Part shown: positions 10,275-50,690 of the stretch, in pieces
Numbering within the stretch: the first letter of the stretch is position 1
Layout: the number at the start of each line of letters is the position of its first letter
Assembly: GCF_041740695.1 (NCBI RefSeq)
Contig: NZ_JBGSLK010000006.1
Span: 23,639 to 87,638 of the forward strand
From: Haliscomenobacter sp.
Lineage (GTDB): Bacteria > Bacteroidota > Bacteroidia > Chitinophagales > Saprospiraceae
Reading direction: 5' to 3'
Length of the DNA stretch: 64,000 nt
Notes under the pieces: model-generated
The model's database searches: none
What the model saw: only the letters and a program-made list of their open reading frames with translations
What the model was told of the DNA's origin: nothing
Program-made: the position numbers and the translations under genes

Positions 10275-10394
10275 GCTGAGGTGCCTCTTCGGTGCCTTTG
10301 GTTTCTTAGGTGGTAAAAATAAGTCCCTTCTACGAAGGAACGTTTCTCTTTTTCACCACCTAAGAAACCAAAGGCACCGAAGAGGCACCTCAGC
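10275..10394. repeat. 40-bp perfect inverted repeat with a 40-nt spacer, in a convergent intergenic region
   Basis: The left arm is GCTGAGGTGCCTCTTCGGTGCCTTTGGTTTCTTAGGTGGT (10275-10314). Its exact reverse complement lies at 10355-10394. The spacer holds a smaller hairpin (CCTTCtacGAAGG). Confidence 0.85.
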
Positions 10395-14056: not shown

Positions 14057-14060
14057 TGTG

Positions 14061-14148
14061 TAGGGGCGCCCCTATGTGGGTGCCCATATTTGCGCCCCCA
14101 TGTGGGTGCCCATTCGCCGTATCAAGGGCGCCCACATAGGGGCGCCCC
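14061..14148. repeat. GC-rich palindromic repeat cluster (GGGGCGCCCC + ATGTGGGTGCCCAT units)
   Basis: GGGGCGCCCCTATGTGGGTGCCC (14063-14085) is repeated as a near-perfect reverse complement at 14125-14147. Between them is a direct repeat of (T/C)ATGTGGGTGCCCAT. Confidence 0.7.
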
Positions 14149-14160
14149 AACAAACAACCC

Positions 14161-14709
14161 ATGCCTTCCAACCCACTTTCCTGGCAACTCCAACACTCCG
14201 AGCCAGGCCCCGATCTAAAACTCTTCCAGGCGCGTTTCGACCACCTGACCAACCCGCGCAATGGCATCACCCAACGGATGATCATCCTCAACTCGCCGGA
14301 TGCTGCGAATGTGGTTGCTATCACGCCCAATCAAGAGCTGATTCTGGCCCGTCAATACCGGGTGGGCATCGGTTTTGAAACCCTGGAACTACCGGGAGGA
14401 ATAGTCGACCCTGGTGAAGAACACCATTTTGCTGCTCAGCGCGAACTGCGCGAGGAAACGGGTTATGCCAGCCAAAATTGGACCTTTTTGGGCAGTATTC
14501 CTTCCAATCCCGTCTTTATGGATTCCTACATCCACCACTGGTTGGCCACCGATTGTGAACCCAATCATGCCATCGATTTGGATACCGGTGAGGCAGTCGA
14601 TCTTGAATTGATGCCCCTTGAAGAAGCCTTTCAGTGCTGGAAATCAGGCTTTTTTCAACATCCTCACACCGTTAACGGACTATTGTTGTATTTTCGCGAC
14701 AGGTTTTAG
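14161..14709 (+). CDS. NUDIX hydrolase (ADP-ribose pyrophosphatase-like)
   Basis: The Nudix box is 'GGIVDPGEEHHFAAQRELREETG'. Confidence 0.85.
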   Translation: MPSNPLSWQLQHSEPGPDLKLFQARFDHLTNPRNGITQRMIILNSPDAANVVAITPNQELILARQYRVGIGFETLELPGGIVDPGEEHHFAAQRELREETGYASQNWTFLGSIPSNPVFMDSYIHHWLATDCEPNHAIDLDTGEAVDLELMPLEEAFQCWKSGFFQHPHTVNGLLLYFRDRF

Positions 14710-14720
14710 TAGTTCAGAGA

Positions 14721-14876
14721 GCTTGTTTAAGTTTTTGGGATCGGGCTGCAAACGGCCCATTTTTGACCAAATTTCGTTCCGAAAATGCTCATTTAGCGCT
14801 GCTAAACTCCGCTTTTCGTGCCTCATTTGGTCAAAAATGGCCTCGTTTTCGCCTTCACCCCAAAAACTTAAACAAG
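14721..14876. mobile_element. MITE-like element with 19-bp terminal inverted repeats (GCTTGTTTAAGTTTTTGGG ... CCCAAAAACTTAAACAAG) and a nested inner inverted repeat
   Basis: I read the terminal inverted repeats directly. The inner inverted repeat is CCATTTTTGACCAAAT ... ATTTGGTCAAAAATGG. The same CTTGTTTAAGTTTTT termini recur at 26574-26629. Confidence 0.5.
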
Positions 14877-14933
14877 TTCTAAGGCAGCGAATTAGACCAT
14901 TGTCGGCTCTATTCAATAAGACCTGTTAAACTT

Positions 14934-15467
14934 GTGACGGAAAAAGAAATCATCGAAGGTTGTTTGCGGCAAAAACGAGAATGCCAACAGGAACTTTTCA
15001 AGCGTTACGCTGGAAAGATGTTGTCGGTATGTATGCGGTATGCCCGCCATCACATGGAAGCGGAAGATGTTCTTCAAGACGCTTTCATCAAAATCTTCGA
15101 TCATTTGCATCAGTTTCAGAACAAAGGCTCCTTTGAGGGCTGGATCCGCCGTGTGGTGGTGAACACTGCACTGAAAACCTTTGACCGCAAAAGTTTTACA
15201 CATGAGCAATACGGCCTGGAAATAAGGGAGGATTTTTCCGCCGCCGAACCCAGTGTTTTTTCCCAGCTCAGTGAAGCAGAACTCTTGGGGCTGATTGCCC
15301 GCCTACCCGAAGGCTACCGCATCGTGTTCAACCTGTACGCCATTGAAGGCTACAGTCACGCCGAGATTGCGGACACCTTGGGCGTTCAAGAGAGTACTTC
15401 CCGGTCACAATTGGTGAAAGCCCGCAAGATGCTGCAGGCAATGGTCATGAATTTAGAGCATGTTTAA
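14934..15467 (+). CDS. RNA polymerase ECF-type sigma-70 factor
   Basis: The region 2 / region 4 architecture is present ('DVLQDAFIKIF', 'GYSHAEIADTLGVQESTSRSQLVKARKML'). It is 177 aa with a GTG start. Confidence 0.85.
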   Translation: MTEKEIIEGCLRQKRECQQELFKRYAGKMLSVCMRYARHHMEAEDVLQDAFIKIFDHLHQFQNKGSFEGWIRRVVVNTALKTFDRKSFTHEQYGLEIREDFSAAEPSVFSQLSEAELLGLIARLPEGYRIVFNLYAIEGYSHAEIADTLGVQESTSRSQLVKARKMLQAMVMNLEHV

Positions 15468-20017: not shown

Positions 20018-20755
20018 ATGAGTTGGCTGACAAACACGCTTTCACCAGTAGGACTGGGCTGGTTTGGCGGGTTCCTGACTTCCTCCATTGGTAAAAAAGT
20101 ACTGATGGCGCTGACAGGGCTTTTCCTGATCTCTTTTTTACCGATTCACTTGTTAGGTAATTTATACTTGATGAAAGATGATGGTGGACGTGATTTTAAT
20201 CTGTATGCGGAGTTTATGACGCACAACAAAATCATCAAAATAGTCTCTTACACCCTTTACCTGTCGATTGTACTGCATGCGATTCAGGGGCTGCTCTTGT
20301 GGAGACAAAACGCCAGCGCACGTGGGCAAAATTATGCGGTGAAGGTTACCCGTGCAGTAGGCACCAATGCTCGTGCTGCCACCCGTATGGGTTGGTTGGG
20401 TACAATTCTGCTGATTTTCATCTTGTTGCACATGTACCAGTTTTGGTTACAGATGAAGTTGGGCAATGTTCCAAGAGCAGCTTATGGAAATGGAGAAATA
20501 GTGAAGGATTTGTACAATCCAGTCATGGATGCCTTTGCCAATCCAACTTTCGTAATCATTTATGTGGTTTCCATGATTGCCATAGCATTCCACCTTTGGC
20601 ATGGTTTCCAAAGTGCCTTCCAGACGCTTGGATTGAATCACAGCAAATATACGCCCCTCATCAAGGCATTGGGTAAGGCGTATTCAGTGTTGATTCCTGC
20701 AGGTTTTGCGCTCATTCCAATATATGTTTATGGAGACACCATGGGATGGTGGTAG
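20018..20755 (+). CDS. sdhC: succinate dehydrogenase / fumarate reductase cytochrome b subunit (b558 family)
   Basis: It has about five TM helices with conserved His, it precedes sdhA and sdhB, and its start is the internal ATG 'MSWLTNTLSP'. Confidence 0.8.
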   Translation: MSWLTNTLSPVGLGWFGGFLTSSIGKKVLMALTGLFLISFLPIHLLGNLYLMKDDGGRDFNLYAEFMTHNKIIKIVSYTLYLSIVLHAIQGLLLWRQNASARGQNYAVKVTRAVGTNARAATRMGWLGTILLIFILLHMYQFWLQMKLGNVPRAAYGNGEIVKDLYNPVMDAFANPTFVIIYVVSMIAIAFHLWHGFQSAFQTLGLNHSKYTPLIKALGKAYSVLIPAGFALIPIYVYGDTMGWW

Positions 20756-20864
20756 GGACAACCCTGTGTGGTTGTCCGCATAAAAAGAGGAACCACACAG
20801 AGTTGCCCGTACGAATGCCCGAATTTCAGAAAATTGAATTTTTTCAATATAAACATTACACATC

Positions 20865-26528: not shown

Positions 26529-26573
26529 TCATTCGTTTTTAAAGGTGATGAGATGGTAAAAATGGGAGTTAGA

Positions 26574-26629
26574 GCTTGTTTAAGTTTTTTTGGCAGAAGT
26601 AAAAAAGACTGCAAAAAAACTTAAACAAG
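26574..26629. repeat. short hairpin element with the same terminal inverted repeats as 14721-14876 (GCTTGTTTAAGTTTTTTT ... AAAAAAACTTAAACAAG)
   Basis: I read it directly. It sits between two minus-strand genes and may act as a terminator for the upstream one. Confidence 0.55.
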
Positions 26630-26648
26630 TGCTTATGCCAGAGTAGGT

Positions 26649-29353: not shown

Positions 29354-30315
29354 GATAACCGGGGAAAAAGTGGAGGAGTTGCTAGAGTACTGTCTATCAC
29401 CGCTCTATTCCACCAGGGTCGTAATTTTACAGCGATTACAATTAGTAAAATGGCTATACCGGCATAAGCAGTAAAAATAATAGTGGATAAAGAGGTATTG
29501 AACAATTCCTGATGCTTGAGCGAAATCCCGAAAAGCGCCCAGGTGACAGCCAAAGCGTAAGGAATGTTGCGCCTTACGAATAGCATTCCCAGCGATAGCG
29601 CTATTGCCACAAGTATCATCATTACAGTCCAGAGTTTTTCGGATAAACCGCCACCATCCCACTGTGCGCCCTTAAGCCAAGCAGTTACGTTTGCAATACT
29701 GGCAACCGAAATCCAACCCAGGTACAATCCGAAGGGAATTTGTAAAAAATTGCGGTAATCCTGGGTGTGGGGTAGTATATAAAATGCCTGGCGATTGACA
29801 CGAATGAGCTGAAAAAGCATCAAAAACATCACAACTATACTGGCTGACACAAATTCGTAGTGCCAACAGAACAACCAAGCCATGTTGAGGAAAGATACGA
29901 ATACGAAGCGCCATCCAAGCGCGTCAATGGCGCGATTGCGATCCAGGCGGCGTTGGGCGGAACGTAGTGGCCAGATTTGCCAGACTGAAAAGAACAGCAG
30001 TAGCAAATAAATCAGGCTCCAAATAGAGAAAGTCAAGCCTGCTGGGGTGAATAAATTGGGGTATTGATCGGATAGCTCCTGGGTAGTCTTGTTGTTGAGG
30101 GGTAAAAAGACTGCCAGGAAATTAAACCCGATACACAACAAAAAAAACAATATATTTGCTGATTTGAGTAAGGTCAAGCGGGTTTTGGAAATTCCCGGGG
30201 AGGTATTGATGATTTGAGCTTCCATGCGAGAGAGTTTTACATTTACTGAACTTTTAAAGTTTAGTAAATGTCGAATGTTAAAAGCTGTTTGAGTTATTAG
30301 AATGGCAGTTTCCAA
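29350..30315 (-). CDS. hypothetical polytopic membrane protein, Trp-rich (possible TspO/MBR-like)
   Basis: It has multiple TM helices with conserved Trp/Pro ('FSIWSLIYLL', 'NMAWLFCWHYEF', 'LYLGWISVASIANVTAW'). There is an alternative start at an internal Met (end 30225). The family assignment is tentative. Confidence 0.45.
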   Translation of the reverse strand: METAILITQTAFNIRHLLNFKSSVNVKLSRMEAQIINTSPGISKTRLTLLKSANILFFLLCIGFNFLAVFLPLNNKTTQELSDQYPNLFTPAGLTFSIWSLIYLLLLFFSVWQIWPLRSAQRRLDRNRAIDALGWRFVFVSFLNMAWLFCWHYEFVSASIVVMFLMLFQLIRVNRQAFYILPHTQDYRNFLQIPFGLYLGWISVASIANVTAWLKGAQWDGGGLSEKLWTVMMILVAIALSLGMLFVRRNIPYALAVTWALFGISLKHQELFNTSLSTIIFTAYAGIAILLIVIAVKLRPWWNRAVIDSTLATPPLFPRLS

Positions 30316-30353
30316 TCTAATAACTCAAACAGCTTCAGAGAAAATGAACAGTA

Positions 30354-35190: not shown

Positions 35191-36069
35191 TTAATACTTC
35201 CGCCTCTTCCGCCACTCCTCCAAAATATTCAAATCCTGCTCATTCTTAATTAAGGTATGCAAATGAGGCGGAAGCTGCTCCTTGAGATCAGTTTCAGCCA
35301 AAGCGCTGGCGGGCAATTGTTCAAACAACAAAAGGCTGATCCAATCCAATAACTCGCTGGTGGAAGGCCGCTTTTTTAAACCCGTCACTTCGCGCAGCGC
35401 ATAAAACAATTGCAGGGCGTTGTTGAGCAATTCCTCGCGGATATTGGGAAAATGCACGTGGACAATGTCCAACATGGTAGCTTTATCCGGGAAACGGATG
35501 TAGTGGAAAAGGCAGCGCCGCAGGAAGGCATCCGGCAATTCTTTTTCGTTGTTGGAAGTGATGATGACGATGGGGCGGTTCACCGCTTTGATGGTTTGTT
35601 GCAGCTCGTACACATAAAACTCCATGCGGTCCAGTTCCAGCAATAAGTCATTGGGGAACTCGATGTCGGCTTTGTCAATTTCGTCGATGAGCAGTACCAC
35701 TGATTCGTCGGCGGTGAACGCTTCCCAGAGTTTGCCCTTTTTGATGTAGTGGCTGATGTCGTCTACACCCTCTTTGCCCAATTGGGAGTCGCGCAGGCGC
35801 GATACTGCGTCGTACTCATACAGGCCTTGTTGGGCCAAGGTAGTCGATTTGATGTGCCAAGTCAGCAGCTTTTTACCCAGCGCATTGGCAATCTCGTGGG
35901 CCAGTAGGGTTTTGCCCGTGCCCGGCTCGCCTTTAACCAGTAAGGGGCGTTGAAGATAAATGGCCGCATTGACAGCTATTTGCAATTCTGAGGTGGCGAC
36001 GTAAGAGGATGTTCCTTGAAATGACATAGCAGCAGTTAATTTTAGGGTTCCAGATTCCCCATCAGGCAC
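35191..36069 (-). CDS. MoxR-family AAA+ ATPase
   Basis: The Walker A is 'GEPGTGKT'. The Walker B is 'VLLIDEIDKA'. The sensor region is 'VIITSNNEKELP'. The track ORF uses a GTG start at 36069, and an alternative ATG start lies at 36027. Confidence 0.8.
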   Translation of the reverse strand: MPDGESGTLKLTAAMSFQGTSSYVATSELQIAVNAAIYLQRPLLVKGEPGTGKTLLAHEIANALGKKLLTWHIKSTTLAQQGLYEYDAVSRLRDSQLGKEGVDDISHYIKKGKLWEAFTADESVVLLIDEIDKADIEFPNDLLLELDRMEFYVYELQQTIKAVNRPIVIITSNNEKELPDAFLRRCLFHYIRFPDKATMLDIVHVHFPNIREELLNNALQLFYALREVTGLKKRPSTSELLDWISLLLFEQLPASALAETDLKEQLPPHLHTLIKNEQDLNILEEWRKRRKY

Positions 36070-36120
36070 CTCGGCTTCGCTCGGCGACCGATGGGGAATC
36101 TGGAACCCTAAAATTAACTG
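36034..36120. repeat. 30-bp perfect inverted repeat (CAGTTAATTTTAGGGTTCCAGATTCCCCATC) with a 26-nt GC-rich spacer
   Basis: The arms lie at 36034-36063 and 36090-36120. They sit in the divergent region between the MoxR gene and nqrA. Confidence 0.85.
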
Positions 36121-36243
36121 TTGTCGTGGATTTGCTCGAAAATATTTTTATGTACACTAGGAAAGAATATTTTTTTTACATTTGGAATGAATTGAAATTT
36201 TCATTTTGTTTTGTTGCGCTGCGCAAAATGCTAACCGAAAGAC

Positions 36244-47413: not shown

Positions 47414-47480
47414 GAAGTTTAACTATTCTCCTGGTATTCCTGGATTGACTAATCATAGTTGATCCAGGAATACCATTACG

Positions 47481-47516
47481 AAAAAAGCCAGACTGAACAT
47501 TCAGCCTGGCTTTTTT
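47481..47516. terminator. bidirectional intrinsic terminator (A6-GCCAGACTGAA..TTCAGCCTGGC-T6) between convergent genes
   Basis: I read it directly. An additional 14-bp inverted repeat (TGGTATTCCTGGAT/ATCCAGGAATACCA) lies at 47432-47475. Confidence 0.65.
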
Positions 47517-47559
47517 CGTTTATAACCCGAGGATCAATTGCATTTGATTCCAGTCAAAA

Positions 47560-48268: not shown

Positions 48269-48680
48269 TTGGAGTTCAAAAGTGTAAACAAATAAAAAAG
48301 GGATCCATCTGCAGCGGGAACAAAATCAATAAAAAACCGCTACAACTGGATCCCTTTGTGAATAATACAACACTAAAGTCACAGTGCCATATTGTGAACA
48401 AAATCAGACAAAATAAGGCGTACTATCATTGTGCATGTTTAATAAGCTTGGTAAAAAGTGCAGCCCGGAGGCTACACTTCGGATTTGTGGCTACAAGTAA
48501 TTAAGTTGGAACTTACATGGAAGGATCGTCTTCCTTTTCTGTTTGTTCTTAGGACAAAGTAAGGGGAAAAAGGGCGCAATTTAGGTGTCGTTTTACAGAA
48601 AAAAAAGATATAGGAGATTTGGGGATTTTGGTTAAATTTTGAGCAGTAAATTTCTGATTTTTAATATTTTAAAATTCTAG
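48269..48680. repeat. copy A of a noncoding direct repeat of about 400 bp (about 90-95% identical to copy B at 50289-50690)
   Basis: I aligned the two copies by eye. On the minus strand it ends with a strong terminator hairpin (AAAGGGATCCA...TGGATCCCTTT + T6) located at 48293-48360. Confidence 0.75.
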
Positions 48681-50091: not shown

Positions 50092-50288
50092 GGGTCGCTT
50101 GATGGTTGTGGAAGCTTTTGAAGGCTTGGTTTATTGGTCTTGCAAGATAAAAATAATTAATTGTTTGTGGAAAATAATTTTTGTTTGTTTTTTAAATAAT
50201 CGAACTTATCCTCAAATTGTTCAAACACTGTCCGAACAATTTGAAGATAAGTTTGATAAAACTGCTGGTAGAGGAACTTTGGTCAAGT

Positions 50289-50690
50289 TGGAGTTCAGAG
50301 GCGTATACAAACAAAAAAGGGATCCATTTGCAGCGGGAACAAAATCAATAAAAAACCGCTACATCTGGATCCCTTTGTGAATAATACAACACTAAGGTTA
50401 CAGTGCTATATTGTGAACAAAATCAGATAAAATAAGGCGTACTATCATTGTGCATGGTTAATAAGCTTGTGAAAAAGTGCAGCCCGGAGGCTACACTTCG
50501 GATTTGTGGCTACAAGTAATTAAGTAGGAACTTACATGGAAGGATCGTCTTCCTTTTCTGTTTGTTCTTAGGACAAAGTAAGGAGAAAAAGGGCAGGGTT
50601 TAGGTGTCATTTTGCAGAGTGAAATGATGGGAGAGATTTTGTGGTTTTGCTTGAATTTAGAACAGTAAATTATTGATTTTTATATAGTTA
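50289..50690. repeat. copy B of the noncoding direct repeat of about 400 bp
   Basis: See copy A. The terminator hairpin lies at about 50312-50378. Confidence 0.75.

Follow-up and report, generated by a model that had tools for sequence, protein, structure and literature searches.

The window, by which we mean the whole 64,000-nt stretch of Haliscomenobacter sp. DNA analysed here, holds a NUDIX gene (14161–14709, stop codon 14707–14709) followed by an ECF sigma factor gene (14934–15467). In the spacer between them lies a palindromic repeat, element 1, that starts 6 nt past the NUDIX stop and is followed after 54 nt by the start codon of the sigma factor gene (Table 1). A shorter relative, element 2, is found between two minus-strand genes, one for a DUF202-like membrane protein of 76 aa and one for YtxH, a protein 100% identical to one that NCBI names as Haliscomenobacter sp. 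A third related short hairpin has two minus-strand genes either side of it and shows no clear duplication; its first 15 nt match the termini of the full-length copies L128, L137 and L121. All three window copies occupy short spacers between co-directional genes.

Table 1. Positions of the three repeat copies in the window and of their parts
Feature	Position	Strand	Remark
Element 1, full-length, 161 bp, GAGCTTGTTTAAG...CTTAAACAAGTTC	14719..14879		Probable palindromic non-autonomous transposon in the NUDIX–ECF sigma spacer
Left target-site duplication copy of element 1, AGA	14716..14718		Degenerate; TAA expected from the closest empty site, L183
Right target-site copy of element 1, TAA	14880..14882		Original TNA target; at the same point, TAA, TCA or TTA in empty sites
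Left terminal inverted repeat (outer stem P1)	14719..14739	+	Outer 10 nt GAGnnTGTTT conserved family-wide
Right terminal inverted repeat, GAACTTGTTTAAGTTTTTGGGG on the minus strand	14858..14879	-
Inner stem P2, left arm, CCATTTTTGACCAAAT	14757..14772	+	Hypervariable among copies; the other arm always compensates
Inner stem P2, right arm	14825..14840	-
Conserved asymmetric core, TTCGTTCCGAAAATGCTCATTTAGCGCTGCTAAACTCCGCTTTTCGTGCCTC	14773..14824	+	Apical palindrome TTTAGC-GCT-GCTAAA
Element 2, short form, 61 bp, GAGC...GTGC	26572..26632		Termini of the same subfamily around a 19-nt centre, without the core
Left target-site duplication of element 2, TTA	26569..26571		Read from sequence
Right target-site duplication of element 2, TTA	26633..26635		Read from sequence
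Third related short hairpin, AAAGCTGTTTGAGTTATTAGA...TCTAATAACTCAAACAGCTTC	30281..30336		Termini of the GAAGCTGTTTGAG subfamily

RESULTS

Two elements with common termini

The first-pass annotation of this DNA had described a MITE-like unit whose terminal 15-mer recurs at a second site. Indeed, the 15-mer CTTGTTTAAGTTTTT is present in four exact copies that make up two inverted pairs, at 14722(+), 14862(−), 26575(+) and 26615(−), and the nested inner repeat CCATTTTTGACCAAAT / ATTTGGTCAAAAATGG reported with it is exact at both P2 arms. When up to two mismatches are allowed, CTTGTTTAAGTTTTT has four matches in the window against 0.6 expected. For the longer half-site AGNNCTTGTTTAAGTTTTT the four matches compare with 0.54 expected, and none of 100 shuffles reaches four. 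The terminal inverted repeats stand as well, only not at the 19 bp first given for them, since the perfectly complementary arms of element 1 measure 18 nt. Similarly, both elements are real while their ends had to be moved: alignment of the family shifts them from 14721–14876 to 14719–14879 (GAGC...GTTC) for element 1 and from 26574–26629 to 26572–26632 for element 2.

The arms of element 2 are 18 nt long and 100% complementary (26575–26592 and 26612–26629). Counted over the window copies, the terminal arms measure 18–22 nt and reach the very ends, and the helix that they form, helix 1, is conserved in 26 copies. As one long imperfect palindrome, element 1 is predicted to fold into a single rod-like hairpin of 163 nt on either strand, with energies of −75 and −81.5 kcal/mol and z ∼ −11. 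It matches the full nhmmer model of the family (E = 1.6e–44) and was aligned with 25 other distinct copies.

The window also holds palindromes of other kinds. Those at 10275–10394 (45-nt arms, 98% complementary), 36030–36123 (41-nt arms, 90% complementary) and 50199–50257 (29-nt arms, 86% complementary) are intergenic and unrelated to the family, and so are two adjacent hairpins with 20-nt arms at 47432–47519. A G+C-rich palindrome with arms TGTAGGGGCGCCCCTATGTGGGTGCCC lies at 14059–14152, just upstream of the NUDIX gene, and a similar one (GTAGGGACAACCCTGTGTGGTT) is found 6.6 kb from it at 20752–20812. The two may represent a second repeat family; a 22-mer at up to three mismatches is matched by the first pair alone. 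A third small repeat family consists of a 61-bp hairpin with 21-nt arms AAAGGGATCCATYTGCAGCGG, present in two copies 2 kb apart (48297–48357 and 50316–50376). The genome seems to be generally rich in palindromic repeats.

Distribution of the family

We collected about 30 distinct full-length relatives of element 1 (∼160 bp), mostly from Saprospiraceae and activated-sludge DNA. In a scan of one genome per species with a 19-nt half-site as the query, the matches listed are mostly single ones that arise by chance; among them are full-length copies of ∼160 bp from Microscilla, Emticicia, two Saprospiraceae bins and one bin of Haliscomenobacter. A Lewinellaceae bin contributes a diverged copy, and two short forms are listed as well. 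The core seen in the window is common to all full copies from Saprospiraceae and Microscilla, and a metagenome scan with this core returned 32 loci, again mostly from activated sludge. The family thus ranges over Saprospiraceae (Haliscomenobacter, other bins and the diverged Lewinellaceae copy) and some Cytophagales (Microscilla and Emticicia).

Plasmid pHALHY01 of H. hydrossis DSM 1100 carries one copy, and this was the single true copy in PLSDB, searched with the element and with the terminus alone, the remainder of the matches being noise. In viral collections the core is absent, while an 18-mer of the terminus matches only conserved phage coding sequence; the GenBank phage set gave no match at all. 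As a lower bound on copies per genome, one Haliscomenobacter contig has at least three loci with the terminal pattern (one full-length and two short), and at least nine contigs of one sludge assembly carry the element. A search of the literature on these sequences and on Haliscomenobacter MITEs found no description. The family is undescribed, but it is an ordinary kind of element.

Flanking sequences are unrelated among the copies, and homology stops sharply at GAG..TGTTT ... AAACA..CTC. In some copies the core is joined to a second class of termini, GGRnnCCTCTAWTAAC. Two loci, L131:6522-6639 and L149:115-276, consist of the core and one arm with a terminus of this second class (CCAAAAGGAATTAATAGAGG...), their other arm being replaced or interrupted; these are truncated or chimeric members from other taxa. 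Two short forms from relatives, L033 and L004, derive from full copies by internal deletion at microhomologies (AAAAC and AAAC). Element 2 differs from both of them, as only the termini are left, around a centre of 19 nt. Beside a copy of the element on a metagenome contig we noticed inverted arrays of the octamer GGGTTCGR, ∼0.85 kb apart (L119:3653-4534 and L130:3084-3965).

Target-site duplications and empty sites

Duplications were counted for 30 copies, namely the 26 of alignment A1, at the ends defined by it, the two short forms element 2 and L033, and two diverged copies. Direct repeats of 3 bp flank the element perfectly in 13/30 and agree at two of the three positions in 9/30, while at a control offset none of 26 copies has a perfect repeat. 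The duplicated triplets are mostly TTA, TAA or TGA; a TNA triplet stands at the left flank in 16 and at the right flank in 23 of the 30 copies.

Several relatives retain the NUDIX–sigma arrangement and lack element 1: L183, whose sigma factor is 97% identical, L151 and L184 (92–93%), L152 (89%), and L154 and L155 (88%). At the junction of their empty sites stands one triplet, TAA, TCA or TTA, and next to it GGCAGCG. The closest of them, L183, reads GGTTC-TAA-GGCAGCG, and the window reads GTTC-AGA-(element)-TAA-GGCAGCG. Since the window has AGA where the empty site has TAA, it is the left copy of the duplication that has degenerated. The duplication of element 1 is consequently imperfect (AGA versus TAA), while that of element 2 is perfect (TTA/TTA). 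Because a relative with a 97% identical sigma factor is free of the insertion, the entry of element 1 is recent. Element 2 is present in the relative L160 (YtxH 86% identical) and absent in L163 and L165 (YtxH 74% identical), whose spacer is shorter by exactly 64 nt, that is by the 61 nt of the element and the 3 nt of the duplication.

Insertion polymorphism together with target duplication means that the unit is mobile DNA, and the element is a real mobile insertion. The earlier MITE-like reading gains in this way from many further copies in relatives and metagenomes, from the target-site duplications and from empty orthologous sites for both window copies. The contrary outcome envisaged with it, of two copies only and no duplicated target, is at odds with ∼30 copies and perfect duplications in 13/30.

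A conserved core between covarying arms

Over the 26 distinct copies, the near-constant parts are the outer 10 nt, GAGnnTGTTT, and a central asymmetric core of ∼52 nt; two short segments of the arms, GCTGCAAAnGG on the left and CTCnTTTTCGC on the right, are also near-constant. Within the left terminus, alignment columns G7, A8, T12, T14, T15 and T16 are invariant or nearly so. The remaining sequence of the arms varies among copies, even inside one terminus subfamily, with complementarity kept. In the 26-copy alignment 95.9% of the cells are paired, and 36 of 58 pairs have changes on both sides, versus 24 in shuffles and 12–17 in controls with slid partners. Cells with a double change number 241 versus 72 in shuffles. 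Helix 2 has changes on both sides in 14 of its 19 pairs.

The pHALHY01 copy has the same core between entirely different arms. In more distant copies (Emticicia, Lewinellaceae) the core has diverged and the architecture is retained. It should be noted that constancy of the core comes partly from the search design, as 26 of its bases were the query, but neighbouring positions that were not searched with are conserved too. The idea that members of the family share their termini and differ in the interior holds for the 61-nt copy, which has the termini only. For the family as a whole it is incomplete, as conservation there is strongest in the core and the termini are variable.

The element is not coding. 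As a small protein or an in-frame element it was rejected, because any one frame is open in 7 of the 26 copies at most and the differences are mostly non-synonymous. With its 78-aa ORF as a protein query, only 9 spurious called ORFs were found among 5.8 billion proteins.

DISCUSSION

Our data are best explained by a non-autonomous cut-and-paste DNA transposon (MITE) of an undescribed family that is moved in trans by an IS5-family transposase, and we put the probability of this at roughly 80%. The enzyme would be an IS1031/IS427-like member of the IS5 family, with DUF4096 and a DDE domain, encoded elsewhere in the genome. The element enters a TNA trinucleotide and duplicates it. The ends and the 3-bp TNA duplication place the element with transposases of this kind. 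Mobilisation by an IS5-family enzyme is most likely judging from these two similarities, which carry the assignment because no transposase gene with matching ends was found: a search for a partner IS by long-range inverted repeats and a YREK-type motif gave none in ∼0.5 Mb of Saprospiraceae loci, and ∼140 kb of the 164-kb pHALHY01 carry no transposase annotation.

Within the IS5 family, elements of the IS1031 group favour TNA targets and generate repeats of 3 bp only; one of them, ISLrh, has the terminal repeat GAACCTGTCTAGTATCT (PMC12016507). ISLrh (GAACCTGTCTAG) and the window element (GAGCTTGTTTAAG / GAACTTGTTTAAG) are alike in the 3-bp TNA duplication and in ends of the form GAG/GAA..TGT. 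The window ends GAGCTTGTTTAAG and GAACTTGTTTAAG can be compared with GAACCTGTCTAGT of ISLrh, GAGCCCGATCC of a Komagataeibacter IS and GAGCGTGTTAATG of Hymenobacter elements. Unlike the members of the IS1031 group, the window element is without a transposase and is palindromic over its whole length, not just at the termini; a partner IS of this group with ends identical to those of the window element was not found in the loci searched. The Komagataeibacter IS, of 930 bp, lies on plasmid pGX5 of K. xylinus and encodes a protein with DUF4096 and DDE_Tnp_1. Its ends are GAGCCCGATCCGAAAGTTTTT and TCA stands on both flanks, so that the 3-bp TNA duplication is reproduced on real sequence. It resembles the window element in combining GAG/GAA..TGT-type ends (GAGCCCGATCC...) with TNA duplication (TCA/TCA).

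IS5-family elements on Hymenobacter plasmids (NZ_CP095047 and NZ_CP094535) are 853 bp long, with a DUF4096 orfA and a DDE orfB. They come from the same phylum, and their ends GAGCGTGTTAATGACT are almost identical over the first 9–12 nt to variants of our family such as GAGCGTGTTTAAAT (L134). They differ in that they belong to a different bacterial order and are flanked by CTA...TAG, not by a TNA triplet. These flanks suggest a duplication of TA within CTAG, as in IS427-like elements, and their occurrence around all three Hymenobacter copies suggests CTAG as a preferred target. On two plasmids (L186:1105-1957 and L187) the Hymenobacter element abuts the end of a replication-initiation gene, and the third copy, L188, is located elsewhere.

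Similar ends are also known from MITEs of Bacteroidota. IS5-family ISPg elements of Porphyromonas and their MITEs start with GAGAC..TTGCA, and the P. gingivalis MITEs BrickBuilt and MITEPgRS share with our element the phylum and the GAG-starting IS5-type ends GAGACCTTTGCA and GAGACTGTTGCA (PMC4596501). In contrast to the window element, they have an interior of tandem repeats and variable duplications and are not palindromes over their whole length. Architecturally, Correia elements (NEMIS) of Neisseria and ERIC of enterobacteria are alike in being intergenic palindromic MITEs of 100–160 bp that form long hairpins when transcribed and occur in full and short forms. These duplicate TA, however, and have no sequence relation to the window element. 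The centre of Correia elements holds an IHF site, while the core of the window element has no recognised motif. In plants, the target duplicated by Tourist and other PIF-Harbinger MITEs is TWA (TTA/TAA), their ends are of the GGnnTTGTTTGG type, and their superfamily, PIF/Harbinger, is a relative of IS5. These elements are eukaryotic, and their likeness to ours does not go beyond the superfamily.

The location of element 1 directly upstream of an ECF sigma factor gene had led to the suggestion that it could influence the expression of this gene. By analogy with known elements such an effect is plausible. The host might have co-opted the MITE, whose hairpin, when read through, would serve as a transcription barrier or as a site for RNase III/E and uncouple the ECF sigma factor from NUDIX; the insertion may thereby separate the sigma operon from upstream read-through. 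This would be a function added on top of mobility and is compatible with the MITE explanation. It would fit with the presence of all three window copies in short spacers between co-directional genes, with the predicted high stability of the RNA hairpin on both strands and with the precedents of Correia and ERIC, whose hairpins can affect the stability of neighbouring mRNA (PMC10969869). Against it speaks the recent date of the insertion, which is absent from close relatives. As even the closest relative lacks it, element 1 is not a conserved regulatory feature of the sigma locus, and we consider co-option rather unlikely. A sigma-70 promoter scan, with a tool that does not cover Bacteroidota promoters, gave none in the element, and a terminator scan gave only two weak terminator-like sub-hairpins inside it, which are not conserved in other subfamilies.

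The MITE model alone does not explain all properties of the family. A classical MITE has its conserved sequence at the termini, but in our family conservation is higher in the core, and this is only partly an artefact of the search. Selection for propagation of the element itself probably acts on the core, which may be bound by the transposase, for example, or by a host factor. A bolder proposal, which we hold to be improbable, is that the core, with its apical palindrome and conserved internal loops, is a functional module in its own right (a site for a host regulator, or a structured DNA or RNA signal) with MITE arms as its carriers, or else that the elements transpose by way of a hairpin or cruciform of a kind undescribed for IS5-type enzymes. 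If the core is a module, its spread through Saprospiraceae and Cytophagales would be due to the arms together with termini of two or more unrelated classes (GAGnnTGTTT, GGRnnCCTCTAWTAAC).

A conserved core between covarying stems could also result from selection on an RNA fold, with dispersal being secondary, if the copies were genes for a structured non-coding RNA or cis-regulatory RNAs. The covariation is very strong, unpaired segments are conserved and the predicted fold is very stable, all as would be expected of such RNAs. However, the whole window has no Rfam 15 match at the gathering score, and at E ≤ 10 the region of the element gives only spurious matches to plant microRNA precursors. 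There is no excess of G-U, as 16 G-T cells stand against 30 A-C beside 1376 Watson–Crick cells, and the orientation of copies relative to flanking genes is unbiased (6 sense, 7 antisense, 3 divergent and 1 convergent). The unit is, moreover, polymorphic in its presence and duplicates its target, which marks it as mobile DNA, and we regard the RNA explanation as very improbable. The lack of G-U excess, orientation bias, Rfam match and kept frame sets the element apart from an RNA gene and leads us to infer that symmetry of the arms is maintained at the level of DNA. Correction of one arm by the other through template switching in quasi-palindromes is established in bacteria, and such copying of arm onto arm might keep the transposon symmetric. 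Alternatively, there might be selection for a hairpin or cruciform, for instance during transposition.

The first-pass annotation had also offered the label 'REP-type', which does not suit an element with terminal inverted repeats and a 3-bp duplication. A REP or REPIN would owe its movement to RAYT, a Y1 HUH transposase whose substrates are hairpins of single-stranded DNA, and the long hairpin, the dispersed intergenic palindrome and the several other palindrome families in the window are in keeping with this. But REPINs and elements of the IS200/IS605 type make no target-site duplication and are without terminal inverted repeats at the very ends, while our family regularly has 3-bp duplications and GAG...CTC ends and its unit is 160 bp long. 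These features fit a DDE transposase and not RAYT, for which reason we reject the REP type; its probability is even smaller than that of the RNA explanation. In a non-systematic look, no RAYT gene was noticed near any copy. Chance likeness of two terminator-like hairpins, which might come to mind as both window copies stand between co-directional genes, where terminators are expected, is practically negligible in view of ∼30 homologous copies with unrelated flanks, existing empty sites, half-site counts far above those of shuffles and hairpins that are not G+C-rich stems followed by a run of T.

Other kinds of recombination or protein-binding site were considered too. The ends GTTTAAG / CTTAAAC are off the consensus RYYYAAC ... 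GTTRRRY of an integron attC by inspection, and the copies are isolated and occur in both orientations. Readings of the ends and the core as dif or IHF sites were considered by eye and dropped.

Taken as a transposon family, the elements give the Saprospiraceae a defined family of MITEs. The mobile DNA of these filamentous activated-sludge bacteria has been described only poorly. Its clear ends, target and empty sites make the family useful as a strain marker, and it is useful as an annotation mask because spurious ORFs are called across the element. The contrast of a conserved core and covarying arms is the only feature that goes beyond the routine. It offers a test case for how palindromes stay symmetric over their whole length during sequence drift. 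Should the core be bound by a protein, we would have here a case of a MITE that spreads a cis-element, and if the core is indeed a module of its own, the elements would wire a shared cis-element beside many genes, here an ECF sigma factor.
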